From the IMG/VR virus record IMGVR_UViG_3300025098_005131: a stretch of DNA of 64,000 nucleotides. One strand, written 5' to 3'. This document shows positions 4,359 to 53,649 of this stretch, one piece after another (within the stretch, counting starts at the first letter, position 1; each line of letters starts with the position of its first letter). Made by a program: the position numbers and the translations under genes. The stretch is from a virus. Its lineage: Duplodnaviria > Caudoviricetes. Under the pieces are notes generated by a model that saw only the letters and a program-made list of their open reading frames with translations, made no database searches and had not been told where the DNA came from.

Positions 4359-5927
4359 TTATGATTTACTTTCATCATCTTTAGAATCACTATCAGCTTC
4401 TTCTCCAGATTTTTCTTCAGCTTCTTCTCCAGATTTTTCTTCAGCTTCTTCTCCAGGTTTTTCTTCTGCTTCTGCTTCTGTTTCAAGTTCTTTTATCAAA
4501 GCTTGTATTGCATTTATATTATCATCGATTTTAACGTTTTTGACTTCTTTTTTTAAAAAACTAAACAAATAAACAAGATCACTTTTTGATTTATTTACTT
4601 GTGTGCTTTTATCCTCACCCATAGACATGGCATCTTCAACAACAAACTTTTGTATTTTTTCATAATAATTGTTTAATAGCGATGGATAAACTTTAAAATC
4701 TTCTTCCAGAAGCTTTATTATAGATTTGCAAGTTCCAATAAACAAAGCTTTATTACTATTGCCGTCTTCACTTTTAACAGGCTCTATTTTCAAGCCTTTT
4801 AATCTTTCCAAAGCAGACTTATCAGCGTGATTTTCAAAGCCAGAAGGAATCGATTTTTTCAAGCTATTAGCGTAAGATTCAATGCTAAAATTATCTGGAT
4901 TAGGTTTATTTACTTCAATTAAATTTAAATACGACTTGTAAGCAATAATTAATAGACAAATAGTCGAAAAATCTTTTTTAATTTTATCATTTCCTTTTGC
5001 AGCAATAGTGTTTAAGTTTGAAAAGAAAACTTCTATAATTTCTTTTTCAAACATAATACAAGCAGCTATAGCATCTAAAACTTCACCTACGTCTCTAGCG
5101 ATTGTAGAAAGTTCCTGATCAGAAAATTCTCTTAATAAACCTAAGTTTGTATTATTTTTAGTTATTCTTAATATATAAAAACTTTCAACAAGACTGTCTA
5201 TAATACTTCTTATGTCTGCTCTAAGCCTTTCTGATAAAGGTTTTTTTATATCTTTAGCATCACTTTTTAAAAAGCTTAATTTTTTAATTCTAGCAACTAT
5301 CTTTTTATCTTTTTCACTAAAGTCTGTTAAGCCGTTAATCCATTCAACAACTTGTGGTGACATTTTTTGTGTAATTACATTTTTTATAGTATTTGTAACG
5401 TCTGATGAATAAGAAATCTCGCTTGTTTCAGCGCCGGCTAAATAATAATTATACAAGCTTTCTGTAATTGTTACATAAGGATCTGATCCTGCCTTATAAT
5501 CTTTTGGTTTATCTTTAGGTGGGCTATAAGCTTTGTTTTGCAATCTTTCAGCAATTGCACCTGCAGGTATTCCTGCAGCAAAAATCATATCTATTTCTGA
5601 TTCTTTTAAGCCAGCAGATAAAATCATGTTTCTTGTTGTGTTATCTAGACTTTGAATTGCTGCATTTGTATCTGTAATGTATTCTTTGTCTAGATTTTGC
5701 ATTCTTTTTGCAAATTTAGTCATATCTCCATCTTCGTGTAAGATATTATAAAGAAAAGAACCGAAAGACTTATAAATAAGAGTTACACTGGCTTTTACAA
5801 AAGAAGCTATATCTTTACCTGCTTTAAAAGTTGATTCTAGTCCAGACATTTTAAAAAGATTACTCATGTCTTCGTCATCACTATACTCTTTGAGAACAAC
5901 CTTGTCCTTAGTTATTTTTAGTTTCAT
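4359..5927 (-). CDS. Hypothetical protein, probable internal virion protein (leader ending VVLKE; acidic repeat tail)
   Basis: 522-aa ORF; N-terminal MKLKITKDKVVLKE; C-terminal EEK(P/S)GEEA repeats. Confidence 0.7.
   Translation of the reverse strand: MKLKITKDKVVLKEYSDDEDMSNLFKMSGLESTFKAGKDIASFVKASVTLIYKSFGSFLYNILHEDGDMTKFAKRMQNLDKEYITDTNAAIQSLDNTTRNMILSAGLKESEIDMIFAAGIPAGAIAERLQNKAYSPPKDKPKDYKAGSDPYVTITESLYNYYLAGAETSEISYSSDVTNTIKNVITQKMSPQVVEWINGLTDFSEKDKKIVARIKKLSFLKSDAKDIKKPLSERLRADIRSIIDSLVESFYILRITKNNTNLGLLREFSDQELSTIARDVGEVLDAIAACIMFEKEIIEVFFSNLNTIAAKGNDKIKKDFSTICLLIIAYKSYLNLIEVNKPNPDNFSIESYANSLKKSIPSGFENHADKSALERLKGLKIEPVKSEDGNSNKALFIGTCKSIIKLLEEDFKVYPSLLNNYYEKIQKFVVEDAMSMGEDKSTQVNKSKSDLVYLFSFLKKEVKNVKIDDNINAIQALIKELETEAEAEEKPGEEAEEKSGEEAEEKSGEEADSDSKDDESKS
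4394..4465. repeat. 3 x 24-bp in-frame tandem repeat (cagcttcttctccagatttttctt)
   Basis: Units at 4394-4417, 4418-4441, 4442-4465 (one substitution); encodes EEKSGEEA. Confidence 0.95.
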
Positions 5928-5933
5928 AAAATA

Positions 5934-6203
5934 TTACTCACAATCGTGTTTATCTTTTTTGTAAAGGATTAACTTTTTTTTATAAATATCTTCGATTGTT
6001 AACAACAAAGACTTTTCAAAATTATTTAAAGTATGCTTTTTTGTTTTTGCATGTCTTGTCGAAAACAATTTTCTCGTATTAGACTTTGAGTATCTAACAA
6101 CGTACTTTTTAACTTTAATCCAATCGTCTCCGTCATAAAGCGGCAAAATTTCACTTAGCAACTCTAGTATTTCTGACTTTTGTTCTTTTGTGCATTCATT
6201 CAT
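5934..6203 (-). CDS. Hypothetical protein (89 aa)
   Basis: Tightly packed ORF. Confidence 0.75.
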   Translation of the reverse strand: MNECTKEQKSEILELLSEILPLYDGDDWIKVKKYVVRYSKSNTRKLFSTRHAKTKKHTLNNFEKSLLLTIEDIYKKKLILYKKDKHDCE

Positions 6204-6205
6204 TA

Positions 6206-7171: not shown

Positions 7172-7811
7172 TATTTTCTAATATGATTCTTTTTTCTCTA
7201 GACTTATCTTGTTTAGACTCACCTATTTTAATTGGTGACATGCTATCTTCTTTAGCTTGTTCTTTTGATTTTTGTTTTCTTTCGATAGACTTTTTCTTTT
7301 CGCTAGTTGCAGAGCCTTTTTTGAATGTATAATAAAACATAGAAGGTATATATGCTGCGCTGCCATCAACATCAAGTCCTGGCGAAGTTACTTGTATAAG
7401 CCCCTTAACAAAGATATGCAAAACTCTTTTTTCTTCTATTGTTAGACGATTAAAGTATTTTTCTACTTCAACGTATACATCTTTATCTTTAAGCGAACTT
7501 GAAGCTCTAACTTGATTAACCAATCTAATAAACTTGTTTAAATCATCAGCATCAGAAAGATTTATTGCTGTAGGTGATTCATCTTCGCTTTTTACTTTTT
7601 TGTCAAAGTAAGTTAGATCATCATCGTCTTGAGTTTCTTCTTCATCTTCTTCGTCAAACTCAACTTCTTCTTCTTTTTCTGATATTTCATCTTTATTATC
7701 TTCGCTGTGATTTCCTTCTCTACGCATTTCTGCTACAAACTCATCAGCTCTTTCCTGATAATCAGACTCGTTTAAGATTTGATATAAACTCAGTAAAACA
7801 TCGTGATTCAT
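7164..7811 (-). CDS. Hypothetical acidic protein, probable internal virion protein
   Basis: Leader ending YQILNE; acidic tract EEEEVEFDEEDEEE. Confidence 0.7.
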   Translation of the reverse strand: MNHDVLLSLYQILNESDYQERADEFVAEMRREGNHSEDNKDEISEKEEEVEFDEEDEEETQDDDDLTYFDKKVKSEDESPTAINLSDADDLNKFIRLVNQVRASSSLKDKDVYVEVEKYFNRLTIEEKRVLHIFVKGLIQVTSPGLDVDGSAAYIPSMFYYTFKKGSATSEKKKSIERKQKSKEQAKEDSMSPIKIGESKQDKSREKRIILENND

Positions 7812-8346: not shown

Positions 8347-8680
8347 AGTAATACATTACATCTTTTTTGATTTTATCTATATCTTTAGACGCTTCTAGCT
8401 CAATTTCAGAAATATTATAGGAAGTTGAATGTATAAGAACAGCCACAGTATTTTTCTTAAATCTTGTTTCAATTAAAGCGCTAGATTCTCTATTATACTT
8501 AATGATTTCTACGACAAATTGTTCTAGAAACTTTGTTTTTTCAAAACTAAATTTTTTTACAAGCCTTTTTTCTCTTGCTTCCCATGTACTTTTCTTTACT
8601 TCTAAAGGTCTAAAACTATTTTCAACTTCAAACCTCTTGTCTTCATAAAGATAATTTGTCATAATACTTTGTAAATTCAT
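8336..8680 (-). CDS. Pterin-4a-carbinolamine dehydratase-fold protein, degenerate
   Basis: W..RLVKKFSF...FVVEI...V.V.IH....ISEIELEASKDID pattern fits PCD fold, but the HHP catalytic motif is absent; leader ends YLYED. Confidence 0.5.
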   Translation of the reverse strand: MNLQSIMTNYLYEDKRFEVENSFRPLEVKKSTWEAREKRLVKKFSFEKTKFLEQFVVEIIKYNRESSALIETRFKKNTVAVLIHSTSYNISEIELEASKDIDKIKKDVMYYYAD

Positions 8681-11600: not shown

Positions 11601-11804
11601 TAAAAGCGACTTTTCACTCGGATATTTTCCGTTTGACTCAACAAGTGATTTTAAATAACACTTAAATTCTGATTTAGCATCTTTATTGATGTATATGTTT
11701 GTAGAAGATATTTCACTTAAAATGTAATATTTTCTTTTAAAACTCTTGTTTTTTTCGTTTAGTATTTTTTGCGCTCTTAGACGCAGTTTACGTTTATTCA
11801 TCAA
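8688..11804 (-). CDS. Large hypothetical protein (1038 aa), probable internal virion protein
   Basis: Several L/I-x-E motifs in first 145 aa (KILNE, YILSE, DIINEE, SILNE). Confidence 0.7.
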   Translation of the reverse strand: MMNKRKLRLRAQKILNEKNKSFKRKYYILSEISSTNIYINKDAKSEFKCYLKSLVESNGKYPSEKSLLDFYESRYSVKSKSTAAIKNLKETVDLQYSNLGFTTVNDIINEEMSASSIYSNQVDKKLYSIMLEGMKRNISILNEGKTIDLTSMFDDVGPRPEELANIESEEDIDDFSMSGDDSSELGASAGKTIDKIIDIFKPIVGGDPAKMSKQKIATNLGYTGTGKYVPGQKNPVLSGWDVLERDVTSKMSAYGKSSMSIVAKRKWWILKSIECCLMLSSQARFFLGISDEEKSRLDVNNTERDAAASFLKSRGNLNKAGRDAIIKETHAELLKGNYDLNNSAISESRLMMLLKRSSSDNPSKQSEFESALEMMYPLSDNRADFEKAPMQSDEERSDTQKEVEDYFKSKDQQTKQSYAEEIDPETGEPLYADEEEISKINKQKSEDKIETGDIISDIKTSNYFNFTSLEAKEYLQQISRDLERLKYLELKTKDRINPEIFSEFKYDTNGNLIDVPDIIPAEELTVEEKKEFEEIIERFATKDVVKMINDSEREQIYQELVDKAVTVDEFIEYNKKFRLEDADKPMSWEDIKRASAGSFTGSQGARQYGVKSWIKSVFLNFSPSDKAEIYSYIAERWYERLKQLDLIDDQSFVVKRDKVNPSDSTLDKAIPRSVLDKAQAAGKYSRSQKLVDVSNMLELINKYTSPRFVKRYFDEKRDDNLPQAVGEKIRQIQAFADSEEEYDTLMKRLEAEDPDTMAFAIMESMFNDKSGFRIFATGLMKEYYNNIIWPGTEVGLAQSVKEYFKKKYPSAGIAKSLSPNEGAAEVRPDEGKDLFNKIIYIVMERTGIKTSGKGVPNVGQSREEQKDYMRGKSDSRGDFVKAVDTYNRNYQQGKRPLLSKYGSGPFNQDDLEDLIDDMFSPSGIIGKVGSQMKRLNQTSAGEIISWVGDYPEAKLDQAIVLGMGLSDFYRRTGTSEMLTLPVEGIGKDTSKALKDYKKKYKSQLLSKDFVEFLDDYLGIEPVDVSAKGSKNPGGKNFQ

Positions 11805-11808: not shown

Positions 11809-12210
11809 TTATACCTTTTCTAAAATTTTATTCACTGACTTAAATATTTTTTCAATAACCTTGTTATCTATTTCGCTACTATCGTAGTCGTCTAGTTTAC
11901 TTGCTAGATATGTAGACAACTCTTTTTTGTTTGCAGGCGTATAAACTTCAGGATCCATTCTGGCGCCCATATTTCGCTCAGAATAACCAATATAACCGCC
12001 AGAAACAAAGTCATCAGCCACTAAAGGTAAAATATATTCTTCTTCGTCTGGGATGTCTGTATTTCCTTCTTTATCTATAGGTGCAGGCCTATGGTGAACC
12101 ATGTGTCTTAAGTTAGTAAAACCATCTGGTCGCCCGCTTGCAGATACTTGATTTTCAAATAGAATATCTTTTGCTACTAATCTTAACTCGTTTAATGTTA
12201 TTTTTTTCAT
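11809..12210 (-). CDS. Hypothetical protein, probable internal virion protein
   Basis: Leader MKKITLNELRLVAKDILFE. Confidence 0.75.
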   Translation of the reverse strand: MKKITLNELRLVAKDILFENQVSASGRPDGFTNLRHMVHHRPAPIDKEGNTDIPDEEEYILPLVADDFVSGGYIGYSERNMGARMDPEVYTPANKKELSTYLASKLDDYDSSEIDNKVIEKIFKSVNKILEKV

Positions 12211-12836: not shown

Positions 12837-13633
12837 TATCCTTGCTTTAAAGCGCCAGAGCTTGTATCATAGTTTGAATTAAAAATGCTGTATTTTTCGT
12901 TAGGATCACGTGAAGATGATATGCGTGTGTAGAAAGCATCTTCAAAGTCCACAACATATTTTTCAGCATAAAAGCCTGCGTCATTTGCAATTATGTTTTG
13001 CATAGTTATGCAGACAATTTTTTCTTTATCATATTTGTCAAACTTTTCCAAAGTGTCTATTGCAACTTCAACGTATCTTTCAATATCTAAGTTTGGATCT
13101 TTCTTTTTCTTGTTTAACTTTTCATATCCGGAATCAAGAGTATCTTCTAGACCTTCCAGCTCTTTTTCAAGTTTCTTAACATCACTCTTTTCTAGTAGAA
13201 ATTCTGATATGCCTTTTCTAGTATACATTACGTTCTTAGACGCTGCAAGCTTTTGTCTCATATCAAGTGCTAAATCAACATGAGGATCTTTAATTACTTT
13301 TGCTCTTAAGTCTTTAAGGCCTTCAATTCCGTCAATTAAAGCAGCAACTTGTTCTTCAGACACGCCTGTTGTTTGATCTTCAGGATCTGCTGCTTCTTCT
13401 TCTTTTTTGTTTTCTTCTTCATCACTGCTACTAGGGTCGTCGCCTGAACTATCTGAATCTGTGTCTAACAAGCTATCATCAAAACCATCACCTGAATCTT
13501 TTTTGCTTTCTTCTTCGTCACTGCTGCTAGAGTCGTCTGAGTCTTTACTTTCATCGTCTTCGTAAAGCACTCTTAAGCTTACTAGTTTGCTTTCATTCAT
13601 ATGATCATAGATTTTTTTACCAAACTTACTCAT
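12836..13633 (-). CDS. Hypothetical acidic low-complexity protein, probable virion protein
   Basis: Leader ending SLRVLYED; Ser/Asp/Glu-rich tract. Confidence 0.7.
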   Translation of the reverse strand: MSKFGKKIYDHMNESKLVSLRVLYEDDESKDSDDSSSSDEEESKKDSGDGFDDSLLDTDSDSSGDDPSSSDEEENKKEEEAADPEDQTTGVSEEQVAALIDGIEGLKDLRAKVIKDPHVDLALDMRQKLAASKNVMYTRKGISEFLLEKSDVKKLEKELEGLEDTLDSGYEKLNKKKKDPNLDIERYVEVAIDTLEKFDKYDKEKIVCITMQNIIANDAGFYAEKYVVDFEDAFYTRISSSRDPNEKYSIFNSNYDTSSGALKQG

Positions 13634-13642: not shown

Positions 13643-14371
13643 CTATAGGATTTTCGAAATCTTTTCAGCTTTTTGAATTCTCTCTTCTATGATATCCCAA
13701 TTAAGTTCTTTCATCATAGCGAAAACATATGCTTTACGATCTTTTAAATAATCCCTGTAATAACTATGCTCCCAACAGTCCATTACCACTATAGGAATGC
13801 AATTAATTAAAACAGAGTCACTATGTAAATCAACTACAGTATTAATATATTTCTTCAAGTTCATGTTGTAAACTGTCATAGCCCAGCCGTTTCTAGCAGA
13901 AAGGCAGCATGCGACAAAGTCTTCTTGCCAAGCATCAAATGTCCCGAAATCTTTTGATAACTTCATGTAAGATAAAGAGTCCATAGAAATATTACTGTTT
14001 AAGTCGCTAATATTTTGAAAATATAATCCATGCAAAAAAGCTGCATTGTGATTGTAAGTTTCGTCTATTTTAAGACTTCTAAATTGAGAATTATTTAAGT
14101 TTGCTTTTGACTTATCTACGCCATCAAGTCTTGCTGATATGTCGTTTAACTCTTTTACATAACCATCTAGCAACTCTTGATGTGCTTTTTTAGTCTTTTG
14201 GGACAACAGTTCAGTTCGCAAATCAAACTTTCCACTTTGCGTCACATATGCTTCAGATATCATTTGACTTTTTTCGTTGCTTCTCTTATTAGTAACAGGC
14301 TCGGTTTTAAGATTGTTTTCTCTTAAAGTTTTTTCAACTGCTTCTTTTACTAATTCATTTAAATCTTTCAT
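13643..14371 (-). CDS. sod: Fe/Mn superoxide dismutase with ~40-aa N-terminal leader
   Basis: KKAHQELL, HNAAFLHGLYF, FGTFDAW, NGWA, MDCWEHSYY (DxWEHxYY) ligand motifs. Confidence 0.92.
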   Translation of the reverse strand: MKDLNELVKEAVEKTLRENNLKTEPVTNKRSNEKSQMISEAYVTQSGKFDLRTELLSQKTKKAHQELLDGYVKELNDISARLDGVDKSKANLNNSQFRSLKIDETYNHNAAFLHGLYFQNISDLNSNISMDSLSYMKLSKDFGTFDAWQEDFVACCLSARNGWAMTVYNMNLKKYINTVVDLHSDSVLINCIPIVVMDCWEHSYYRDYLKDRKAYVFAMMKELNWDIIEERIQKAEKISKIL

Positions 14372-14898
14372 AGTGTAAATTCTCTCTCAAATTCTTTTAT
14401 TTCAACATCAAAAAAAACTTTATCATCACTCTTTATTAAATCATAATCGTTAAATGCAGGAGAGTCTGATGCATTTGTCTCAAATGATCTTTTTGTCTTT
14501 GCATCCGGATTTCTTTTAATAATAGTATTATCTTCAGGCTTTGATTTTTTACTTTTGTCTTTTAACTGTTCACTAGATTTCTTTCTAGCTTTTTCTTTCT
14601 TAACAAACTTTTCTTCTTCGTCACTTTCGTAAATAGGACTTTTTGACTGACTCATAGTTAAATCTTCTAAAGGCTCACCTGAAGAAAGTAGTCTGACATA
14701 TATAATGCCTTCTTTTTCTACTACACCTGCAATTGTATACATAAAGCCGGCTTTGTCTTTTACTTTTAACCCTTTTGCGTTTGCAATTAAATCGTTGTCA
14801 TTGTTATCTTTTACTTCAATTTCTCTTAAGTAGTGATTTATACGAGTATCATATTCCTCACGTAAAAGCCTAATCATTTTTTTCTCGTTAAGACTCAT
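14368..14898 (-). CDS. Hypothetical protein, probable virion protein
   Basis: Leader MSLNEKKMIRLLREE. Confidence 0.7.
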   Translation of the reverse strand: MSLNEKKMIRLLREEYDTRINHYLREIEVKDNNDNDLIANAKGLKVKDKAGFMYTIAGVVEKEGIIYVRLLSSGEPLEDLTMSQSKSPIYESDEEEKFVKKEKARKKSSEQLKDKSKKSKPEDNTIIKRNPDAKTKRSFETNASDSPAFNDYDLIKSDDKVFFDVEIKEFEREFTL

Positions 14899-14912: not shown

Positions 14913-17900
14913 TTATTTATATATATTCCAAAGTCTACGCCACTCTTTCTCCAGACTCGAAGAATTAACGCTGTCTTTCTTATTATATACTCTTTTAACC
15001 ACGCTTAAATCTTCTTTGTTACTACTCTCAAACAATAAATTAGTTAAACTACCTAGTATGTAGTCACTACTACTTTTATTTGATTTGTTTTCTAACTTTA
15101 GATTTTCTTCATTGTCCATCAAATCTTTAAACAACGCTTTCTTTACAGAATTACTATCTTCATCTAAAAATTTTCGTAAAAAATTTTTAACTTCTTTTTT
15201 GTAATCTTTTATTTTATTAGATTTAGGATAATAAATGTAATAATCGACGTTTTCCTCACTGCCAGTTTGAATTTTTTGCTTAAATTTGAATAAATTCAAG
15301 GTTCCATCAGATATTTGAGTTTTGCTGAACGACTCAAAATTCACCGGGGCGCCAAATGGTCCCGAGCTGATTGAAGCACATGTGAATTTATTTTCATGAA
15401 CAAATCCTACTATAAACGCAGTGTTTTCTTTTTTATACACGACTGGTAATAACAAATTTTTATCAAGTTTATTACCGTCTAAAAATTTTACCAAATTCTT
15501 CCGGAAGTCAATATTGCTACTGATTTCCTTTCTGGACACGCAAGTATTATCTGTATAAAAGTCCTGAAGCACAGATACTTCAACTTTTAAACTAGACAAC
15601 TTGCTGTTTGAAGATGATGATTTTGATTTATCTTTAGAAGGCTGTAATATATTGCCATCATCATCTTCTGTTCCATCTTGTGGTTCTTGTCCTGATTTAT
15701 CTTTATAAGCCTGTGATTCTGGCTCATCTGCGTCTATAAAACTAGCATTTAAGTTTGAAAAATCAAAACTGATGTTTTCAACGTCTAAATTACTAAACGA
15801 ATTTCCTATATCTTCAGGTGTAAGAGGAATATCATGTTGCACGGTAGTTTGATTAAACTCTTCCACGAGTTGTTGACCAGCATTATCTCCGAGTGAATCT
15901 TTTGCAGCTTCTAATCTATTAGAAACTGCAGTTTGTAAAGTAACTGCTTTTACTTCAGCTTTACTTGTAGCTTGCTTTACATTTTCAATTGTTGCGTTGT
16001 AGTAATATGAAAGTAATAAATTTAGACTTTCGATAAACTCGTTTTTAACTGCTGATATGTCTGCTGGAGAACTGGCGTATTTAGAATCATACATTAAGAC
16101 TTTATTTCTTGTTAGTATATCTTCAAAGTCTTTTCTTTTAATCTCTTTTTTCTTTATTTCTTTCTTTCTGCTCTTTTTGCCGATTACATCAAAATCTTTA
16201 AGCTCAAATAAAAGCTCTGTCAAAGATCTTTCGTGAACATAGATACCTTCAACAATTTTCGCATCTTTTAGAGCTTCGATTATTGAAGAGTCTAATCCTT
16301 TTAGATGCTTCTTAGCTTCCGCATCAATTTTTTTTGTTAAATCAGATTTATTTACTTCATCTTTCTGCACAGGACCAAGTCCTACAGTGCTATGACCAAT
16401 TAAAGCGCCAACAGGCATACCAAGAATACCTGCAGTAGCAAGTGCTACAGCACCTAAACCACCAGTTGCAATAGCGCCTAGAACACCAACAGTTAAAGGA
16501 ATGGCAGCACCAACCCCAAACCTAAAGCCTTCCTTTCGAACTTGTTCTTTCTTGGCATCAAGCATTTCTTTTTCGTACTTCTCTTGAGCTTCACGACGCT
16601 TCTCGTTATATGCTTTTTCATCTTCTGCTTCGAGAAGCTTTCTACTTATGCTCTTACATAATTCTTCTAACTGCGAATCTTTTGCTTCTTCTTCACTAGG
16701 TTCTACTCCGTAAAATAACTCACACTGGTCTTTATATTCTTGACAACCATTAATTATTTCTTGAACTTTTTCTTCATCACCTTGAAAGAGATCATTTAAA
16801 ACTTCTTTCATAATTTCTTCAATTGGAGTTGGTTCTTGATTAAGATTAGATCTTAAAACATAGAAAATCAAGCTTTTAAATTCTCTTTCTTTTACATGCC
16901 TCTGAAAGTTTTCAAACAAGCTGTCAATAAGCTTACCATCAAAGTCAAACATAGGAGAAAAAGAAAAATACTTTAAAATCGTAGCCAACTCATCAACGTC
17001 TTTTCCTTGTAGTAATTTTGCAAAGAAATCTTCGTAACTTTTTTCTTCTTCTCTTATCTTTCTTGCAACAAAATTTAAAATAGGCTTATTCTTTAAAACA
17101 AGATTTCTCTGCGTGCTTGAACTTCCTATATTCACTGTTTTTAATACTTTATTAAATCTTTGACAAGTTTCGTTTACTCTTTTCTTAAACTCATCCAGAC
17201 TCTCAATATAAGTACTTTGGTCTTCATCACTACCAGCAGATTCTGTTGCAGCGGCTGTAATTGCTGCTTCTAGCGACTTAGGCACTTTGTTGTTAAATAT
17301 GTCTGTATATAATTGATCAGGCTCAAGATCTTTTTCTAACTTAATCTTTAGTTCTTGAAGATCTGAAGTAATAATAGAGTTAAACGACTTAAGCAAAGCA
17401 TCGTCTACAGGCTTAGCATCGTTATCACCATACAACAGTTTTTTTATAGTTTCACTCGAATTAGTGTCATCTTTTTGTAGTGCTTCTTTTTGTTTATCAC
17501 TACCGCTAGCGTACAAGTTTCTAGCAAGGACTATATTTGGTTCTTCAGATTGTTCTTGTCTATTTACGATTAAAGATAGACTTCTTTCAAGTTCTCTAGC
17601 TGCGTTTTCTAATCTACCTTTAAAGTCTGTCGGGCTTGGTGGTTTAGTTGGCGGTTTAGACTCAGGTTGTACTACCTGTTCTTCTTCTGGCTGCACTTGG
17701 TCATCTTGAGAAGCACTTTCATCTGATGGCTCGTTATCTTCGAGATTCTCGCCGCTTAAGTTTTCAATAGCAGCTTCCGAAGCTTTATGTGAAGCTTTTA
17801 TTACCTGCGCAAATTCATACGCTAGTTGCTCATTATAGATACCCCAGAACTTTTGAGTTTCAATATGTTTACATATTCTAGCAAGTCTTTGTTCGCTTTT

Positions 17901-19526
17901 AGCCACGTTATTTGTAAGCCCAGAAGTACCGAAATAAGCCATTGTGCTGGCAAGTAAAGTGAGTGGCACTGCATAATTATTTACATAATTTAATACAACC
18001 TGTAGGTCTTCTTTTAATAACACTTTATTAAAATCGTTATATGTTTTACTTTCAAGTTTTAATGTTTGTTTTTTAGCAAGACAGTAAACAACTAGATTTG
18101 CAAAGCCGGCTTCGAAATTGTTGTCAACCTCATCAAGTTTATCAGGATTACTTCCCCTAGTGATAAATCTTTTTACATCATATGATTGAAAATCTACTTT
18201 TTTCACTTTATTGTAAAGAAATCGCCATTTGGAAAGTAAATCTTTTATCGTACTACTATCAAAAACTTTTTTAATGTCTTCTTTATTTTTTTTAATAAAT
18301 TCTTCGCCTTCAAAAGATTCAGCAATACTTTGAATTCTTAGGATAGTTTTATTTTTTTTGTTATCCTTATCCAGCCTATCAGCCTCGAAGCTATAATTTT
18401 TTATAATAGCAAATATCGTCTCATCATTTGAAGGCATTTCCATTTGATCAAGAGTGCTTTTATAAAACAAAGATTTTAATTGCTTGTCATTTCTTATTTT
18501 TTCTACTACAGTTGACCAATATAACTTATTGCTAGAATCTCCACCCTTCTTACTTAAATGCTCAATAACTTCCTGTAGACTCATTAAATCTTCATAATGG
18601 CTTTTAAACGCAATATAGTCGTTACCACTACTTTCAGCAAGAAGGGATTTTATTCCTTGTTTATACACCAAAGAATTGTTTTCAAAGAGTCCTGCATTTA
18701 ATTCTTCTTGTGATTGGCGTTCTGCAGGAGAATCGCCTTTTTCTTCTTCGTCTCTAACTATATTTTGCATTGTACTCCTATACGTGGTTTGAAGTTTTTG
18801 AACTAAGGCGGGCAAAGTTTTCTGGTTTTTAAATGCTTGTTGCACAAACTTTAAGATTTCGCTATCTATTGGCACAACAGGCAACTCTAAGTTTTCTACA
18901 TTCGCAGCAAACTTACTCTCTTCTCCGTTAATTATATGATTTTCTAGCAAACCCGGAAATAGTTCTTCATATACTGGAACGTTTTTTTCTTCTATTTTTG
19001 CATAATAAGCAGGTGCAAGAAACGCATAACCAAAAGAACCTTTTCTATTATTTTCTCCTGATAACACTTCACCTTCTTTTGTCATTACAAGAAAAGGAAT
19101 AATTTGCGTGCTTTTTATAAGCTCTAAATCTATTCCTGTAAATCCTTTTACTTGTTCCTTACCAGTTTTCATTTGCGCAACATCAAACACCACTGGGCCT
19201 AACCTTGAGACATTTGTTGTTGATATTGCTATTCGCATCAAATCTTGTTTAGAAAAAGCACCAAGAGGATCGCTTATTATAGGCTCGACTTGCTTTTGAA
19301 TCTTGTCTTTTTCTTCTTGCGAGTCAACGCTTTTTATTTCGTCAATTACTTTTTTGACTAATTTAGCATCAGGTAGTTTACTAAAAATTTTACCAGACAC
19401 AGTTTTTTTTAGCGAATTTAAAAACGCTTGATTGACTGTGAAATCTTCTGATGCAGTCTCTGGTAGCGGTTGATTGTTTTTAAGGGTAGCATCCTCAAAC
19501 AATAATTCAGCAATACTTAGAGTCAT
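14913..19526 (-). CDS. Large (1537 aa) probable internal head/ejection protein with repeated SxxxLLFE motifs and a Gly/Ala-rich hydrophobic segment
   Basis: SIAELLFE, SLTELLFE, SLTNLLFE plus SLLAE, VLLKE, KLLE; hydrophobic GVGAAIPLTVGVLGAIATGGLGAVALATAGILGMPVGALIG. Confidence 0.7.
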   Translation of the reverse strand: MTLSIAELLFEDATLKNNQPLPETASEDFTVNQAFLNSLKKTVSGKIFSKLPDAKLVKKVIDEIKSVDSQEEKDKIQKQVEPIISDPLGAFSKQDLMRIAISTTNVSRLGPVVFDVAQMKTGKEQVKGFTGIDLELIKSTQIIPFLVMTKEGEVLSGENNRKGSFGYAFLAPAYYAKIEEKNVPVYEELFPGLLENHIINGEESKFAANVENLELPVVPIDSEILKFVQQAFKNQKTLPALVQKLQTTYRSTMQNIVRDEEEKGDSPAERQSQEELNAGLFENNSLVYKQGIKSLLAESSGNDYIAFKSHYEDLMSLQEVIEHLSKKGGDSSNKLYWSTVVEKIRNDKQLKSLFYKSTLDQMEMPSNDETIFAIIKNYSFEADRLDKDNKKNKTILRIQSIAESFEGEEFIKKNKEDIKKVFDSSTIKDLLSKWRFLYNKVKKVDFQSYDVKRFITRGSNPDKLDEVDNNFEAGFANLVVYCLAKKQTLKLESKTYNDFNKVLLKEDLQVVLNYVNNYAVPLTLLASTMAYFGTSGLTNNVAKSEQRLARICKHIETQKFWGIYNEQLAYEFAQVIKASHKASEAAIENLSGENLEDNEPSDESASQDDQVQPEEEQVVQPESKPPTKPPSPTDFKGRLENAARELERSLSLIVNRQEQSEEPNIVLARNLYASGSDKQKEALQKDDTNSSETIKKLLYGDNDAKPVDDALLKSFNSIITSDLQELKIKLEKDLEPDQLYTDIFNNKVPKSLEAAITAAATESAGSDEDQSTYIESLDEFKKRVNETCQRFNKVLKTVNIGSSSTQRNLVLKNKPILNFVARKIREEEKSYEDFFAKLLQGKDVDELATILKYFSFSPMFDFDGKLIDSLFENFQRHVKEREFKSLIFYVLRSNLNQEPTPIEEIMKEVLNDLFQGDEEKVQEIINGCQEYKDQCELFYGVEPSEEEAKDSQLEELCKSISRKLLEAEDEKAYNEKRREAQEKYEKEMLDAKKEQVRKEGFRFGVGAAIPLTVGVLGAIATGGLGAVALATAGILGMPVGALIGHSTVGLGPVQKDEVNKSDLTKKIDAEAKKHLKGLDSSIIEALKDAKIVEGIYVHERSLTELLFELKDFDVIGKKSRKKEIKKKEIKRKDFEDILTRNKVLMYDSKYASSPADISAVKNEFIESLNLLLSYYYNATIENVKQATSKAEVKAVTLQTAVSNRLEAAKDSLGDNAGQQLVEEFNQTTVQHDIPLTPEDIGNSFSNLDVENISFDFSNLNASFIDADEPESQAYKDKSGQEPQDGTEDDDGNILQPSKDKSKSSSSNSKLSSLKVEVSVLQDFYTDNTCVSRKEISSNIDFRKNLVKFLDGNKLDKNLLLPVVYKKENTAFIVGFVHENKFTCASISSGPFGAPVNFESFSKTQISDGTLNLFKFKQKIQTGSEENVDYYIYYPKSNKIKDYKKEVKNFLRKFLDEDSNSVKKALFKDLMDNEENLKLENKSNKSSSDYILGSLTNLLFESSNKEDLSVVKRVYNKKDSVNSSSLEKEWRRLWNIYK

Positions 19527-19990: not shown

Positions 19991-20566
19991 ATGTCTATTT
20001 TATTATTAGAAGATTATATAAAAAATATTTTAAAAGAAAACAAAGAATTTATTAAAACTATAAATGTTTTTGACTTTGATATGACTTTGTTTAAATCGCT
20101 AACAGCACCTAATCGTTGGAATACAAAAGAGTCAGGATTTTGGTGGAATTCAGAGGAATCTTTAAATCAAGCATATCATAAGGACAACTTAAACAGTTTG
20201 TGGATAGAAAACACAGTTAATTCTGTAAAGCTGTCTATGAGTGATCCAGCATCACTAACAGTATTATGCACAGCAAGAAGCAAGACACCAGAAATTATGT
20301 ATGTTACAAATAATTTACTTCGATTAAAAGTTTTGCTTTTTGACGACAATTGTCTTTTCTATAAACCTTTAGGCATAAAAATGTCAACTGCACAGTATAA
20401 AACTGACGTCATAGTCAGACTTCTCAACGCTTATAGTTATGCAAACGAAGTTAATTTCTGGGAAGACAATATAGAAAACCTACAGCATGCTAAAAGTTTT
20501 ATTGATCAAAACAATAAACATAATAGCAGAAAAATTCAATTTAATTCACATGTTGTAATTGCTTAG
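19991..20566 (+). CDS. HAD-superfamily phosphatase (Swiss-army-knife RNA-repair-like HAD) with virion-type leader
   Basis: VFDFDMTLF (DxD), CTAR, YKTDVI, FWEDNIENL; ATG 19991 has SD GAGGT (ORF track starts at 19976). Confidence 0.8.
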   Translation: MSILLLEDYIKNILKENKEFIKTINVFDFDMTLFKSLTAPNRWNTKESGFWWNSEESLNQAYHKDNLNSLWIENTVNSVKLSMSDPASLTVLCTARSKTPEIMYVTNNLLRLKVLLFDDNCLFYKPLGIKMSTAQYKTDVIVRLLNAYSYANEVNFWEDNIENLQHAKSFIDQNNKHNSRKIQFNSHVVIA

Positions 20567-22896: not shown

Positions 22897-22944
22897 TTAA
22901 AACCTTTTTTATTTTATATTATAATTACAAACAATAAATTTTAT

Positions 22945-22987
22945 CATATTTAAAAATATATTTAAAAACATATTTAAAAACATATTT
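22945..22987 (+). repeat. 3.5 x 12-bp tandem repeat (c/t)atatttaaaaa upstream of ORF 23003
   Basis: Units 22945-22956, 22957-22968, 22969-22980, partial 22981-22987. Confidence 0.9.
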
Positions 22988-23002: not shown

Positions 23003-23419
23003 ATGAAAATTACAGAAAGACGTTTACGTTCAATTATTAGAAGTGTTATTAGAGAGTCACGTGCTGACAAGATGTTAGATTATCACGTAGGTCATGGTGA
23101 TCATCCAGACTATGATCCTGCAGTAGGTCAAGATCGTTCTGAGACGTTGTTTGATATAAGCGGCGATCGCCCTACTGAGCCTTATTCTCCTCCTATGAAA
23201 GTATCAAAACAACTTATGGATTCTGCAAGAGCAAACTCATATCTTCAAAAGTATAGTCCATTAAAATCAAGAATACAAGGAAGTGTAAGTTGTAAACGTT
23301 CTAGCGAGCGTTTTCCTGATGGCTGGAGCTGTAGTGTTAAACTGTCTGAAGACGGGCGCATTGTGCCTGTAATTATTCACATGAGCTACGACGGTGACAT
23401 AGAAGTACAATACATGTAA
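23003..23419 (+). CDS. Hypothetical protein with virion-type leader (MKITERRLRSIIRSVIRE)
   Basis: Strong SD CAGGAG; lone plus-strand gene filling the gap between kinase-TS fusion and dnaE. Confidence 0.8.
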   Translation: MKITERRLRSIIRSVIRESRADKMLDYHVGHGDHPDYDPAVGQDRSETLFDISGDRPTEPYSPPMKVSKQLMDSARANSYLQKYSPLKSRIQGSVSCKRSSERFPDGWSCSVKLSEDGRIVPVIIHMSYDGDIEVQYM

Positions 23420-31143: not shown

Positions 31144-33339
31144 ATGAAAATTAGACTACTTAAAAAATATATTAAAGAATCACTTGGAAGAGAAATTATG
31201 TCTTCTCCAAAAAGGTTGTCTTTACCAAATACAGCTGCAGACCAGCAAAGATTTTTAACAAAAATAGAAACAATAGACAAAACAAAGCTTTCTTTAGAAG
31301 AAATACTAGAAGAACTTATTGTTGCAGCTGGTCCGACTACTTATATACGATATCAAAATAAGTTTGGAGACGTAGAAGTCCCTCCGATGGAAGTTAGCCC
31401 GCAAGTTAGATTTCAAACGCCTCACGGAATATATGGTTATCCCTTAAACCAAAACAACTTACAGTCAATAATTACAAGAGGACAGCCAACTAGTGCAGGC
31501 TTTGCGACAAACTATGATTATTTCCATGTTTACAAAATTGATACGTCAAAAACAGCTAACGTAAAAAAAGATAAAGAAAGTCTAAGTGTAATACAAGGCA
31601 AATACACTAACAAGGAAAAAGTGATAGATGACATAGCTGAATGTATAAGGCTTTCTACAAGTTTAATTAAAGACAAAGAAAAAGAAGATGCTATTTTGCA
31701 AGATTATAAAGATCTAGAAAAAGACATTAAAAATCTTAAAAGTAACGTCTCATATGATAATTATTACTTCAACTCAATCTTTACAAAATATAGTCATCTA
31801 GTCGGTGAGGTTGACGAAGAAAAGATCGATGAAAAACAAAGTTTAATTAACATATATAAATTTGAAATTGCTGACGCAATATATGCGCATATGAGAAGTC
31901 ATTTTGAAAAATTTGGTTATTATAATAAAAACGTTAGCAAACAATATTCATTTTTTGTTATTTTAAAAGATGCTATAGGAAGTATATCTTCTGCTATTGC
32001 AGAGATAAATGAAACAAGCAGAGGACAGTATTATTCAATTTTATTAAAAGCAATAGGCATTACAGGCATCACAGACGATTCAACTAGCACTATTCACGGA
32101 AACGAGCCGAGTCAATCTGTTTCTTTCGACTTTTCAGGTAATACAATTACACCTATAGGAACATTTAGAAATGTTTTTAAGAAAAATATTAGCAATTTAA
32201 AAGAAACTTTCGATGTTATATTAAAAGATTTGATAGACAGTGGGTTAGTAAACTGGTCACCAAAAATAGATAGAAATATTGCAAATTATGACTATGAAAA
32301 CTTAAGTCTTAAATCGTTTAATACAGTAGTTAAAACATTAAGTAAAAATGAAGAATTATTTGATTTTATTACAGAAGTGGCAAGACAGAATGTAAACAAA
32401 AAAGTATTAAATTTTATATACAATAAATATAAAAACTTTGAATTATCATCAGGACAAAATGTTTTATATTACTTATTAGAAAATAAAAGTATTGATAAAA
32501 AAGTAATGTATGATTATTATAATCAATTTGTTAAAGGCTTGTTAAACTCTACTATGTCAAGTGGTGAAATGTATAATGAAGGCTTAGGTTGCATTTTACA
32601 ATTTGTATCTAGTCCGTCGTTACCAAAATCAATTCAGCTTGATATAGTGAGAAATTCAGAACTTGTAAATAAAGGAGAGAAAATGGTGTTTCCGGACATT
32701 TTAGGCCGACTAGAGTGGTCTCATGTTCTGGACAAAGAAACGTGCATACAAATTTTTAACAAATTTGGTTATGAAAAATCCAGTTTAACTAACAATCGTT
32801 ATGCACCAATTGCTAATTATTTAATTAATGATCTTGATGAATTTTTAGATAATGAAAATATATTAGATAAAACTACTGTTATACAGGCTCGAGCAATGAA
32901 AAGAATTAACACAATTTTTGTTAACCAAAAAATAACTAAAGATGAGTTGTTATATGTTTCTGAAAAGATAGATAAATTAATAGCTGGGAGGCATTTAAAA
33001 AATAGCACAAGTAATGAACATGGTATAGACACTTGGATAGTGTATTGCACAGTTAGTTTAATTAATAATAAAAACTTTAGCAGAGAAATTTTAGATGCAA
33101 TGAACATTACGCTAGAAGAAGAAATCAACATGCTGTCAACAGTTTTGGAATATGAGAGAGAGTCTGATGAGATGATTGAGGAAGAGGACTACGACGAAGA
33201 TGATGAACCTAAAAAGTTTGATTTAATTAAAGATGGCTTGCCTTACTTAGAGTATTATCCTGGCGGAGAAAATCTTAAGAAAAAATTACCAAGAGCATAC
33301 AATTATTTAAAGAATGCATCAAAGCATGGAATAGGCTAA
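31144..33339 (+). CDS. Probable virion protein, possible divergent ART-fold N-terminal domain
   Basis: Leader MKIRLLKKYIKES; TPHGIYGYPL ... FA ... GITGITDD ... IHGNEPSQSVSF. Confidence 0.5.
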   Translation: MKIRLLKKYIKESLGREIMSSPKRLSLPNTAADQQRFLTKIETIDKTKLSLEEILEELIVAAGPTTYIRYQNKFGDVEVPPMEVSPQVRFQTPHGIYGYPLNQNNLQSIITRGQPTSAGFATNYDYFHVYKIDTSKTANVKKDKESLSVIQGKYTNKEKVIDDIAECIRLSTSLIKDKEKEDAILQDYKDLEKDIKNLKSNVSYDNYYFNSIFTKYSHLVGEVDEEKIDEKQSLINIYKFEIADAIYAHMRSHFEKFGYYNKNVSKQYSFFVILKDAIGSISSAIAEINETSRGQYYSILLKAIGITGITDDSTSTIHGNEPSQSVSFDFSGNTITPIGTFRNVFKKNISNLKETFDVILKDLIDSGLVNWSPKIDRNIANYDYENLSLKSFNTVVKTLSKNEELFDFITEVARQNVNKKVLNFIYNKYKNFELSSGQNVLYYLLENKSIDKKVMYDYYNQFVKGLLNSTMSSGEMYNEGLGCILQFVSSPSLPKSIQLDIVRNSELVNKGEKMVFPDILGRLEWSHVLDKETCIQIFNKFGYEKSSLTNNRYAPIANYLINDLDEFLDNENILDKTTVIQARAMKRINTIFVNQKITKDELLYVSEKIDKLIAGRHLKNSTSNEHGIDTWIVYCTVSLINNKNFSREILDAMNITLEEEINMLSTVLEYERESDEMIEEEDYDEDDEPKKFDLIKDGLPYLEYYPGGENLKKKLPRAYNYLKNASKHGIG

Positions 33340-41321: not shown

Positions 41322-41681
41322 CTAAATTATTATGGGTCTTTTCTTTAAATTTTTATCTATAGTTTGATCGTCATGCTCCATTACTTTAATCATGTCTACT
41401 CCTTCTATCTTCTTGAGGGACTTAATCATATCTAAAAAAGGTTTTCTTGTTTCAATAAACGTGGGTATATAAGAAACGTTAAGCTCAATTAGTCTGTGTC
41501 CGTATGAAGAAACGACGTCTGATATTGGTCGTGTTTGCCTGACAGTTACAACTCCCGGAAGAGCTCTCATATCTGTCATGATGTCTAAAACAGTTGGATC
41601 TTCTCTTTCTTCGATTTTTATTCTACATCTTACTAAGGTGTTAACTAAGTCAGTATGTCTTTCTAGTATTAAGTTTTTCAT
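41322..41681 (-). CDS. Hypothetical protein, possible virion protein
   Basis: MKNLILE leader; SD AAGGAG; ATAGTTA motif upstream. Confidence 0.7.
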   Translation of the reverse strand: MKNLILERHTDLVNTLVRCRIKIEEREDPTVLDIMTDMRALPGVVTVRQTRPISDVVSSYGHRLIELNVSYIPTFIETRKPFLDMIKSLKKIEGVDMIKVMEHDDQTIDKNLKKRPIII

Positions 41682-49827: not shown

Positions 49828-49834
49828 TATACTC

Positions 49835-51844: not shown

Positions 51845-51941
51845 ATTATTTAATACCTTTCATAGTATTTGTTTAAATTTTTAATTGGTTATTTGTTATT
51901 TGTTATTTTTTTAATTTGTTTTGATCACCAATTGTGATACC

Positions 51942-51970
51942 ATTATATTATAGATTTTTAATTTTTACAC
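51942..51970 (-). promoter_or_regulatory. Putative promoter GTGTAA-N17-TATAAT heading the SSB-recA-nuclease-helicase-dut-nrdAB-trx-clpP-amidase operon
   Basis: Recurring motif pair; about 90-nt AU-rich leader follows. Confidence 0.7.
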
Positions 51971-51999
51971 ATTAAATTAATTTATTTTTATAACTCTTC

Positions 52000-53649
52000 T
52001 CAGCTAAGCCTTTCAGCTTTTTCTTTAGCTTTCTTCTCAGCTTTTAGCCTTTTAATCTCTTCTATCTTAGAACATAAGTTGTCAAATGCTTGAGTTATAA
52101 TTGCAATATTTTCATTGTTATAGTTATCGCTTGGCTCAACAATCCGCCAAGCTCTTTTGTTTCTTACAACTCCTAACATTGTTTTCATTATCTTAGAAGC
52201 CAAGCTTTTATTTGGATTGTTTAACAAGTCAACAATATCACTTGTAAATTCATAAAAACTTTCAGGTGTAAAGAAGACCCTTAGTTTAGGCCTTAGGTTT
52301 ATGTTGCCAAGTGTCACTGCGTAGTTTAAAGTATTATATCCTGATGAGTTTTTTCTTATTTGATCACTTGAATCTAAGGTTACATCTTGTAGTTTTATTG
52401 CTTCAGCAACTTCAAACAAGCTTTGAGAAGCTGATCTTATGTTGATAGCTCCATACTCAAATGATGATGCAAATGGACTTTGGATTCGTTGTAAGTCTCC
52501 ATAGGCTGGATTAGGTATCTTAAATCCTATTTGATCTTTTATAGAAACAAAAAGACCTTCAAAAGGAGAGTTAGGTGCAATTAAAGATCCACTTAGAGAA
52601 GTCATAAGCAATTCAGTTAGCTGTGGTTTTATGTTTTCTAAAACAAACTGCTTAAAAGATCCTGTTGAATGACTTTGAATTTTCTGTTTTAAAGAAGAAA
52701 GTATATCAATATATTCCTGAGTTAACTCAGGAAATCTTTTTGCTTGATTTGGTCCCATAAAATAAATATTGTATTTTGGATTTGTCATTGCTTTTGCATC
52801 TTCTTCGGTAAATTCTCCTGAGTATACAACTGCATATTCTTTTCTACCAGGTATACTATAAGATATGTAGTCACCTTTTCTATCATCTGACTTAAGTGAT
52901 TCAACGCCAAAGTATTTATAAGTTCCTTCTGGCATTTTATGAGGATAAGAATATTTAAAAGCATTATAAATACTACTAGAAGCTCCGGATCTATTTAAAA
53001 ATAGATACCAATTATACCCAGCACGTCTACTATATTTTTCTTTTTTAAACTCATCATATGTATATAAGTCGCTATATTTTGTTTTCATAATATCAACATT
53101 AGATACTGGCAGACCTTTGTTTAACCTATCAGACTTTGCTTTATCAAAAGATTTTTTTGTCGCAATAAAAATCTGTGGTCCTGTGTTTATAGTTTTATTA
53201 GTCTTTTTGTCTTTTTTGTAACCATCTGGTCCAACCAAAACTGAAACGTGTTGACCACTAAACTTTTCTGTCATACTTATTTGATAGCCTTCAACAGCAT
53301 TACCTAACATATGCTCTATAAAAGCTAAGATCTGATCTTTAGAAAGATTTTCTAGCTGTGGTGTTTTTTTTGCTTCAAACAAAAAAGAATAATTTTCTTT
53401 TAGTGTCCTCTTTCTACCTTTTTCTCCGCCGTGTTTAAGATACCACTGTACAGATCTTGTATATGTCTTTTTCTTTTTACCTTTTGATCTATGCTTTTTA
53501 TCTGTTGCCGTAGACTTTTTATATATGTTTACACCACGAGATCCAGCTTTAGGGCCTGTGCCTAGAGGGGTTGATACGCCACCTACTGCGCCGGCGCCAC
53601 TAAATTCTCTAACTAAAGCTTCTAAAACTCTACTATAAATATCTTGCAT
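52000..53649 (-). CDS. Probable virion protein with degenerate ligase-like nucleotidyltransferase motifs
   Basis: Leader motifs LVRE, TLKE, FLFE; TEKFSG (motif I KxDG-like), FEGLFV (motif IV-like), FKIPN (motif V-like). Confidence 0.5.
   Translation of the reverse strand: MQDIYSRVLEALVREFSGAGAVGGVSTPLGTGPKAGSRGVNIYKKSTATDKKHRSKGKKKKTYTRSVQWYLKHGGEKGRKRTLKENYSFLFEAKKTPQLENLSKDQILAFIEHMLGNAVEGYQISMTEKFSGQHVSVLVGPDGYKKDKKTNKTINTGPQIFIATKKSFDKAKSDRLNKGLPVSNVDIMKTKYSDLYTYDEFKKEKYSRRAGYNWYLFLNRSGASSSIYNAFKYSYPHKMPEGTYKYFGVESLKSDDRKGDYISYSIPGRKEYAVVYSGEFTEEDAKAMTNPKYNIYFMGPNQAKRFPELTQEYIDILSSLKQKIQSHSTGSFKQFVLENIKPQLTELLMTSLSGSLIAPNSPFEGLFVSIKDQIGFKIPNPAYGDLQRIQSPFASSFEYGAINIRSASQSLFEVAEAIKLQDVTLDSSDQIRKNSSGYNTLNYAVTLGNINLRPKLRVFFTPESFYEFTSDIVDLLNNPNKSLASKIMKTMLGVVRNKRAWRIVEPSDNYNNENIAIITQAFDNLCSKIEEIKRLKAEKKAKEKAERLS

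Follow-up and report, generated by a model that had tools for sequence, protein, structure and literature searches.

The window analysed here, a stretch of 64,000 nucleotides from a tailed virus (IMG/VR record IMGVR_UViG_3300025098_005131), encodes a set of otherwise unrelated proteins that begin with a short leader ending in a hydrophobic residue, any residue and glutamate. We consider it probable that these leaders are capsid-targeting propeptides of the phage T4 type, removed by a gp21-like protease, in a greatly expanded form. Most likely, about a dozen unrelated proteins would be loaded into the capsid and trimmed there; from the comparisons below we infer that they dock to the core, are cleaved, reside in the virion and are ejected into the host. 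The source is an uncultured giant phage of marine origin. It is judged a distant T4-like phage because its major capsid protein belongs to the T4 Gp23 family while the nearest cultured relatives of that protein (Flavobacterium phage immuto, Microcystis phage Mel-JY01 and Rhodothermus phage RM378) are less than 50% identical.

In the mechanism that we propose, the leader would form an amphipathic helix at the N-terminus, hydrophobic at P8/P7 and at P4/P3 and ending either directly in L/I/V-x-Glu or in a disordered linker followed by L/I/V-x-Glu. By analogy with the internal proteins and Alt of T4, this helix would dock the new protein onto the scaffolding core during prohead assembly, and a gp21-like serine protease would then cut after the Glu (P1), freeing the mature protein inside the head. 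Two large proteins, of 1537 and 549 amino acids (aa), may also be cut at internal copies of the site. Some 11-12 proteins of the window would be such cargo, including an Fe/Mn-type superoxide dismutase (SOD) and a HAD-family phosphatase.

An earlier note on this DNA had quoted leaders from 15 open reading frames (ORFs), and every string was indeed found at the N-terminus of the ORF named. In 14 of these 15 proteins the leader is 11-40 residues long and ends in [LIV]-x-E, with L, I or V at P3. Start codons at 19991 (HAD protein) and 11801 (1037-aa protein) were placed better than in the longest ORF, and gene callers made the same choice on identical contigs. Two hydrophobic residues followed by x-Glu ([ILVMFYW]2-x-E, hereafter hh-x-E) occur within the first 30 residues of 26 of the 64 ORFs, compared with 21-22% of 570 internal 30-aa segments (p=3e-4 to 5e-4). 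The stricter [ILV][ILFY]xE of the earlier note gave 18/64 against 11.6% internally (p=2.5e-4). A third pattern, h-x2/3-h-h-x-E, was fixed beforehand from the T4 capsid-targeting sequence (CTS), with hydrophobic residues at P7 or P8, P4 and P3 and Glu at P1; this CTS-like pattern heads 19/64 ORFs against 13% of internal segments (p=3.5e-4). The N-terminal excess is restricted to motifs starting in residues 1-20, and neither hh-x-D nor hh-x-K is enriched at the N-termini of the window ORFs.

The distribution across gene classes is uneven. The hh-x-E motif is present in 24 of 37 remaining ORFs, as opposed to 2 of 23 replication and metabolic enzymes recognised by Pfam and none of four baseplate or tail proteins (Fisher p=1.5e-5). 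Each of the four window genes on the plus strand has the motif. The claim that replication and metabolic enzymes are free of the motif holds for the recognisable ones, their 2/23 being no more than chance. A position-specific scoring matrix (PSSM), built only from the leaders of a complete relative, G001 (239,550 bp, with terminal repeats), is over-fitted to the leader families A and B described below and was used as a set-level test only; it flags 15 of the 64 window N-termini at p<=0.05 where 3.2 are expected, and 10 of these 15 were on the earlier list. Conserved leaders that it misses include those at 4359, 7164, 12836 and 14368 (genes are named here by their first coordinate). The motif is loose, about 14 of 64 matches being expected by chance, and the list is right as a set, not protein by protein, because the excess amounts to only about 12 ORFs. 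It also occurs in 11 ORFs that the earlier note did not list, such as ClpP and dUTPase. These two were rejected as cargo, being conserved enzymes with the motif at chance rate, and so was ORF 3508-3969, in which Glu is replaced by Asp in G001.

The same signal is present genome-wide in G001, where 69 of 302 N-termini show the CTS-like pattern compared with 11.8% internally (p=6e-8), an excess of about 33 proteins. It is found in 6 of 14 proteins of the head module, in 1 of 25 of the baseplate-tail-neck block and in 2 of 56 of the next structural block. T4 (AF158101, 150 kb, same gene caller) served as a control. There, hh-x-E is not enriched (21.7% versus 18.5%), and the CTS-like pattern is enriched modestly (15.7% versus 9.8%, p=0.003), which fits about 10 processed proteins. 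Comparing the enrichment in the window and G001 with that in T4, we therefore regard the signal as several-fold larger here.

Similar leaders recur on unrelated proteins. Among window and G001 proteins with non-homologous remainders, 36 pairs of N-terminal 14-mers reached a BLOSUM score of at least 35, compared with 2 pairs for control residues 41-66. Family A leaders (consensus sequences in Table 1) stand on at least ten unrelated G001 proteins. Leader B heads the 138-aa window protein and three unrelated G001 proteins; it matches G001 g1671 in 17 of 19 residues and g45811 in 14 of 19, with unrelated mature parts. At the locus beside DNA polymerase III alpha, leader B is common to the window and G001 but the mature domains differ. 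The 45 nt upstream of the leader B copies are 31-53% identical, near random, whereas across the 19 codons 10-17 residues are identical, of which 2-6 are encoded by synonymous codons. This pattern argues for selection acting on the peptide and against an artefact of promoter cassettes. In the fourth family, the 921-aa protein and a 1122-aa protein beside gp23 are identical in 8 of their first 10 residues and similar in nothing else.

One putative propeptide is that of the SOD. Sequence comparison and a structure model assign the Fe/Mn SOD fold and the metal-binding motif to the 242-aa protein: it scores 71.6 bits against Pfam Sod_Fe_C (cut-off 20.9), with the N-terminal domain below the Pfam cut-off (17 vs 27 bits), and it aligns with PDB entry 1COJ (E=8e-30), DCWEHSYY pairing with DTYEHAYY, which holds the metal-binding D-x-x-x-H. 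In 49 of 150 cluster representatives of the family, Glu occupies P1 at precisely the point at which the cellular homologues begin. In these 49, P3 is L (23), I (16), V (5) or F (2), together 46/49, P1' is A or S in 39, and the propeptides measure 12-120 residues. In an alignment of 25 sequences only four columns are invariant, and E40 is among them. The AlphaFold2 (AF2) model, with a predicted local distance difference test (pLDDT) score of 90, contains a helix at residues 4-18, a disordered linker at residues 23-34 (pLDDT <50) and a core that begins at residue 41. From the conservation of the Glu, the cellular start point and the core boundary of the model, MISE40/A is therefore the conserved site. 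The earlier note had named two sites in this protein, KTLRE and MISE; the second is the conserved one, and TLRE18 does not correspond to a conserved site. The G001 SOD has lost the first-site Glu.

Packaging of the phage SOD is a prediction from sequence, and a viral precedent exists. Virions of chlorovirus PBCV-1 contain a Cu/Zn SOD with a supposed role in lowering superoxide at an early stage of infection (PMC7019647). Both enzymes are virus-encoded, packaging being known for PBCV-1 and predicted for the phage; in contrast, PBCV-1 is a eukaryotic virus, its enzyme is of the Cu/Zn and not the Fe/Mn type, and no propeptide mechanism is involved. No virion-packaged SOD of a phage was described in the literature searched. 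A 98-aa ORF without a leader (12540-12836) lies inside the cargo cluster; of 80 related viral contigs, 63 keep it beside the SOD. It has no Pfam match and by eye resembles a small DNA-binding protein.

Two large proteins appear to carry more than one site. The 1537-aa protein contains S-[IL]-x-x-L-[LI]-F-E at residues 4-11, 1101-1108 and 1493-1500, and all three copies are retained in five of five homologues despite 29% overall identity. The last copy is identical in all five, and the middle one reads SLAQLIFE in the most distant homologue; outside these copies S[IL]xxL[LI]FE is absent among 95,874 residues. The mid-protein copy suggests, on sequence grounds, a polyprotein. In the 549-aa protein, the leader is followed by a module with a conserved GGxGGVxTPLGxGP and a basic stretch (KKHRSKGKKK), which extends to FLFE92/A. 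E15 is invariant in 19 homologues, the rest of the protein being 25-35% identical, and the second boundary (E92) retains h-x-E. The module (window 53374-53604; contig L051:4744-4968) occurs as a stand-alone ORF of 75-106 aa in several relatives and may be an internal-protein-like basic peptide. Of the two strings once quoted for the leader of this protein, LVRE does lie within it; FLFE occupies residues 89-92, outside the leader.

Taken protein by protein, leaders are well supported in 11 genes (4359, 7164, 8336, 11809, 12836, 13643 (SOD), 14368, 14913, 19991 (HAD), 23003 and 52000), and three are weaker (8688, 28331 and 31144). The Glu is invariant in four families, those of the SOD and the 176-, 133- and 549-aa proteins, and the site is retained at 24-46% identity in the 265-, 215-, 522- and 114-aa families. 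Among 20 orthologues of the 176-aa protein (23-53% identity), E26 never varies, and conservation reaches 90% or more at L24 and E14. Its AF2 model, of low confidence (pLDDT 68, predicted template modelling score (pTM) 0.37) and used for the helix/linker layout only, contains a helix at residues 5-25 and then a disordered stretch. The models of both the SOD and the 176-aa protein thus have a helix followed by a disordered linker, with the folded SOD core beginning at the cut site. In eight orthologues of the 133-aa protein (29-35% identity) LFEN is the sole invariant block within the first 70 residues, and the leader scores p=0.002 with the PSSM. In all seven orthologues of the 265-aa protein, h-h-x-E is retained and leads into an acidic stretch (RILLEE, DILLEQ, SILFEE, RLLLEE, KLILEK, SLLVEE).

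The 215-aa protein retains ILNE in G001 (46% identity), and its homologues at 24-27% identity have the helix with NLHE, LLRE or LLKE. The G001 orthologue of the 522-aa protein (28% identity) retains NNLLLKE/D. For the 114-aa protein, whose mature part gives a weak Pterin_4a-like match, G001 has YLNE with an indel immediately after the site, and one distant homologue is without the leader. The HAD leader immediately precedes the DxD strand (VFDFDMT; Pfam HAD_SAK_1, 70 bits) and has the highest PSSM score in the window (16.5); each of its orthologues retains at least one of the two sites. Among the weaker cases, 11 of 13 orthologues of the 1037-aa protein carry L-x-E at the first site. One homologue of the 731-aa protein (31% identity) carries MKEKTIRLYIKNLLE/S, and the N-terminus scores 32 against G001 family A; no diverged orthologue of the 921-aa protein was found. 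Most of the putative cargo proteins have no Pfam or PHROGs match, and the large ones returned nothing from the PDB sequence search or Atlas.

Table 1. Leaders, internal site copies and leader families; a slash marks the predicted cut
Feature	Position	Strand	Gene	Sequence and remarks
522-aa protein leader	5886..5927	(-)	4359-5927	MKLKITKDKVVLKE/Y, residues 1-14
215-aa protein leader	7767..7811	(-)	7164-7811	MNHDVLLSLYQILNE/S, residues 1-15
114-aa protein leader	8642..8680	(-)	8336-8680	MNLQSIMTNYLYE/D, residues 1-13
1037-aa protein leader region, weaker case	11712..11801	(-)	8688-11801	MNKRKLRLRAQKILNE/KNKSFKRKYYILSE/I; candidate sites E16, E30
133-aa protein leader	12154..12210	(-)	11809-12210	MKKITLNELRLVAKDILFE/N, residues 1-19
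265-aa acidic protein leader	13559..13633	(-)	12836-13633	...KLVSLRVLYE/DDESKD, residues 1-25
Fe/Mn-type SOD propeptide	14252..14371	(-)	13643-14371, 242 aa	MISE40/AYVTQ at start of SOD core
176-aa protein leader	14821..14898	(-)	14368-14898	MSLNEKKMIRLLRE14/EYDTRINHYLRE26/I
1537-aa protein leader	19494..19526	(-)	14913-19526	MTLSIAELLFE/D, residues 1-11
1537-aa protein, internal site copy	16203..16226	(-)	14913-19526	SLTELLFE/L, residues 1101-1108
1537-aa protein, second internal copy	15027..15050	(-)	14913-19526	SLTNLLFE/S, residues 1493-1500; 37 residues from C-terminus
HAD-family phosphatase-like protein leader	19991..20038	(+)	19991-20566, 191 aa	MSILLLE/DYIKNILKE/N; family A
138-aa protein leader	23003..23056	(+)	23003-23419	MKITERRLRSIIRSVIRE/S; family B
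921-aa protein leader, weaker case	28331..28372	(+)	28331-31096	MTKYSLKENFLIKE/N
731-aa protein leader, weaker case	31144..31179	(+)	31144-33339	MKIRLLKKYIKE/S; resembles family A
119-aa protein, doubtful	41661..41681	(-)	41322-41681	MKNLILE/R
549-aa protein N-terminal module	53374..53649	(-)	52000-53649	leader MQDIYSRVLEALVRE15/FS
Leader family A				ILLENYIKExLLxE; window HAD protein; 731-aa protein resembles it
Leader family B				MKITERRLRxIIRxVIxE; window 138-aa protein; 133-aa and 1037-aa proteins resemble it
Leader family C				TKLIMExWRxFLKE; on a head-module protein
Fourth leader family				MTKYSLK; 921-aa protein and 1122-aa neighbour of gp23

The gp21-like protease that the earlier note had suggested looking for was found outside the window, as a Peptidase_S77 gene between portal and scaffold. 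The head module was reached by chaining contigs through identical proteins outward from the window. Along the chain, the end of the window is followed by a T4-type baseplate, two sheath-like genes, gp15/gp13 and the head module, which comprises terminase, Portal_T4, a 274-aa protein, Peptidase_S77, five small or acidic proteins, a 514-aa scaffold-like protein and Gp23. Peptidase_S77 (PF03420; contigs L017/L018) scores 102 bits (cut-off 27), Gp23 269 bits and Portal_T4 267 bits. When aligned with T4 gp21 (5JBL, E=3e-17), the 200-aa protease has His, Ser and Asp where the catalytic residues lie, and it is present in four of five large relatives and in G001.

L/I-x-E leaders were likewise found on the scaffold and the small head proteins. 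The leaders of three module proteins read ...LIMETWRRFLKE/G (128 aa), ...LIKQLVLEE (95 aa) and ...LKSIVKECLVE/LLAE/G (143 aa), and the gp23 homologue has TLLE50/N and ALRE59/S just ahead of the region that aligns to mature T4 gp23*. The tandem sheath-like proteins, of 1033 and 1668 aa (Phage_sheath_1C; L008:1-6156, L011:2626-10773), sit between the neck genes and the baseplate, past the right end of the window.

The closest known counterpart is the CTS of T4. There, gp21 cuts after L/I-x-E (PMC9026906, PMC3012670), and the first 10 residues of IPIII suffice for packaging (PMC9026906, PMC3012670, PMC5694885). Within the 10-residue CTS, residues 4 and 7 (P7/P4) serve targeting, and residues 8 and 10 (P3/P1) processing (PMC9026906). 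Propeptides of the T4 type measure about 7-65 residues, a span into which the 11-40 residues of the leaders here fall. It has been proposed as a general loading route for diverse proteins in T4-like phages (PMC9026906, PMC3012670, PMC5694885). The T4 leaders (AF158101), MKTYQEFIAE/A of IPII/IPIII, MAKINELLRE/S of gp24 and MELITELFDE/D of Alt, resemble MTLSIAELLFE/D and ...KKMIRLLRE/E of the window. Both systems share a short N-terminal leader with hydrophobic P7, P4 and P3, Glu at P1 and the motif L/I-x-E; both place one leader on unrelated mature proteins at variable loci, and both have the S77 protease between portal and scaffold. They differ in extent, with about 10 processed head proteins in T4 compared with about 12 putative ones in the 64-kb window and an excess of about 33 in G001, and in the number of leader families, one in T4 and at least four here. 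In further contrast to T4, many of the propeptides are two-part, with a helix, a disordered linker of up to about 100 residues and a junction site, and the cargo would include proteins of 500-1500 aa and recognisable enzymes. Sequence homology of the leaders to the T4 CTS cannot be shown at such length.

Alt, the ADP-ribosyltransferase that T4 carries in its head and injects, offers a parallel to the 1537-aa protein. Both are large and would be led by a very short leader (MELITELFDE/D and MTLSIAELLFE/D). Alt is processed at both ends (PMC9026906), and in the 1537-aa protein a conserved site lies 37 residues before the C-terminus; unlike Alt, this protein also has the mid-protein copy. Its mature part bears no detectable similarity to Alt (no Pfam, PHROG, PDB or Atlas match). 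In the phiKZ-like giant phages (phiKZ gp175, 201phi2-1, SPN3US gp245), about 8-19 head proteins are cut after Glu by a gp21-related protease; a propeptide can hold several sites, some paralogues share the same N-terminus, and a CTS-like role has been suggested for the propeptides (PMC5694885, PMC9026906). The many head proteins cut after Glu would be common to both systems, cleavage being a prediction here. However, the phiKZ-type motif is S/A/G-x-E and its propeptides mostly exceed 100 residues, whereas here P3 is L/I/V, the leaders are mostly 11-40 residues long and the head genes are T4-type (Gp23, Portal_T4). Processing of the phiKZ type, with small S/A/G at P3, was accordingly rejected, P3 being L/I/V/F in the SOD family and L/I/V in the window leaders.

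Several points weigh against reading the leaders as capsid-targeting propeptides. The phage is uncultured, and the reading is drawn from its sequence. Because the contigs come from other samples, the S77 protease belongs to the same phage population but not provably to the same molecule, and a second protease, of the ClpP family (43294-43899), is encoded within the window. Two of the 13 orthologues of the 1037-aa protein, including that of G001, are without both Glu residues, with RLSE three residues downstream. In this family and that of the 176-aa protein, the first-site helix might belong to the mature protein, because conservation continues past the first site. The T4 late-promoter consensus TATAAATA is not enriched (13 matches versus 11.4 expected), so that late expression gains no support from it, and a sigma-70 scan stayed at background level. 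Finally, with the loose motif in 21% of internal 30-aa segments, individual assignments can be chance, and the listing of gene 41322-41681 by the earlier note found no independent support. Its candidate site lies just 7 residues after the start, and comparison with G001 is uninformative because the whole protein is conserved (69% identity). No family was found for this protein, Atlas gave nothing reliable, and the gene lies downstream of ThyX, co-oriented, in an operon headed by a GTGTAA-type promoter.

Chance probably does explain 41322-41681 and perhaps one or two more. In its general form, this explanation holds that the leader is noise in an AT-rich genome with K/I/L/N/E-rich N-termini, where hydrophobic-x-Glu is common; the background frequency of the bare motif, the 11 unlisted matching ORFs and about five probably false-positive ORFs flagged by the PSSM are all in line with it. 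For the set as a whole, chance is largely refuted, and we regard it as highly improbable. It does not explain why the excess is confined to residues 1-20 and to Glu, as opposed to Asp or Lys, why four families have kept the Glu without exception at 23-50% identity, why near-identical leaders stand on unrelated proteins far more often than control segments pair, or why tail proteins and enzymes are depleted in the motif, and T4, of similar composition, is without hh-x-E enrichment. An account by cassette recombination, in which exchange at promoter or ribosome-site modules reaches a few codons into the gene and the leader is hitch-hiking DNA, would suit the location of leader-bearing genes in variable regions and the different mature domains behind leader B at one locus. 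We give it very little credence: the sequence upstream of leader B is near random while its codons keep the residues through synonymous changes, none of the seven GTGTAA-type promoters lies within 4359-26995, and leaders are also conserved in vertically inherited orthologues. The lack of GTGTAA-type promoters in this stretch agrees, though weakly, with an expression class of its own for the putative cargo cluster.

It is also conceivable, though unlikely, that the helix is a real conserved signal unrelated to the capsid, namely an uncleaved docking or oligomerisation helix, a membrane-associating amphipathic helix or a recognition tag for ClpP. The ClpP-family gene of the window, the conservation past the first site in the 176- and 1037-aa families and the absence of evidence for late transcription in the promoter scan would all agree with such a signal. 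Yet conservation falls precisely on P3 and P1 of the gp21 motif, P1' being A or S in the SOD family, and the site lies at the cellular SOD start and at helix-linker or linker-core boundaries. Head-module proteins and the gp23 neighbour bear the same leaders. Moreover, ClpP lies among nucleotide-metabolism genes, whereas S77 sits between portal and scaffold, as in T4.

The window has 31% G+C, and nearly all of its genes lie on the minus strand. Besides the putative cargo, it encodes DNA polymerase III alpha, a PolA fragment, DnaB, RecA/UvsX, gp32, two 5'-3' exonucleases, dCMP deaminase, thymidine kinase, ribonucleotide reductase, dUTPase, Fpg, an amidase, the ClpP-family protease (Pfam 76 bits; 84.5% identical in G001), two Thy1-type ORFs and a chaperonin-like ORF of 543 aa. 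GenBank phages gave no match to 24 kb of the window (megablast) or to the 1537-aa and 549-aa proteins (tblastn), an exact 32-mer had no match in IMG/VR, and a related-locus search with the 1537-aa protein returned no match. Metagenomic contigs of up to 277 kb nevertheless carry proteins identical to those of the window, and relatives in IMG/VR comprise 588 contigs with a UvsX homologue and at least 231 viral contigs with the SOD.

DNA polymerase III alpha is a single ORF of 1191 aa here (23420-26995); on a contig with identical neighbouring proteins (L002:1075-6107) it is broken by an intein-type insertion into a 305-aa PHP + Intein_splicing ORF, a 316-aa ORF and a 1031-aa Intein_splicing + DNA_pol3_alpha ORF. 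The PolA-family gene (54294-55613) is split into ORFs of 353 and 82 aa in the window and forms one 439-aa ORF on a near-identical contig (L005:15746-17065). The two Thy1/ThyX-type ORFs lie about 2 kb apart (39022-39993 and 41706-42410); the 323-aa ORF scores 69 bits against Pfam Thy1, and the 234-aa ORF was named by its N-terminal sequence only. Three to four tandem copies of CATATTTAAAAA occupy 22897-23002, in the divergent intergenic region upstream of gene 23003-23419, and the repeat also precedes the positional counterpart in G001; it could be a regulatory site.

If the leaders are indeed capsid-targeting propeptides, the capsid contents of an uncultured giant phage would be readable from sequence alone, providing a concrete candidate list of injected proteins for studies of host take-over and counter-defence. 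The CTS principle of T4 would extend beyond a few small internal proteins and cover dozens, with lengths reaching 1500 residues, and the leaders could serve as packaging tags in phage engineering, for which the T4 CTS is already used. The SOD yields the sharpest prediction, a conserved propeptide on an enzyme whose cellular relatives begin at the predicted cut, and its predicted mature N-terminus, AYVTQSGK..., is directly searchable in marine viral metaproteomes. More tentatively, and with doubt prevailing, marine giant T4-like phages may carry about 30 exchangeable capsid-borne proteins with several leader classes, including an active Fe/Mn SOD delivered with the DNA. Were this so, copy number, position or the order of ejection could depend on the leader class, and the SOD, whose propeptide is conserved across at least 231 viral contigs, would be the first antioxidant enzyme packaged by a phage.

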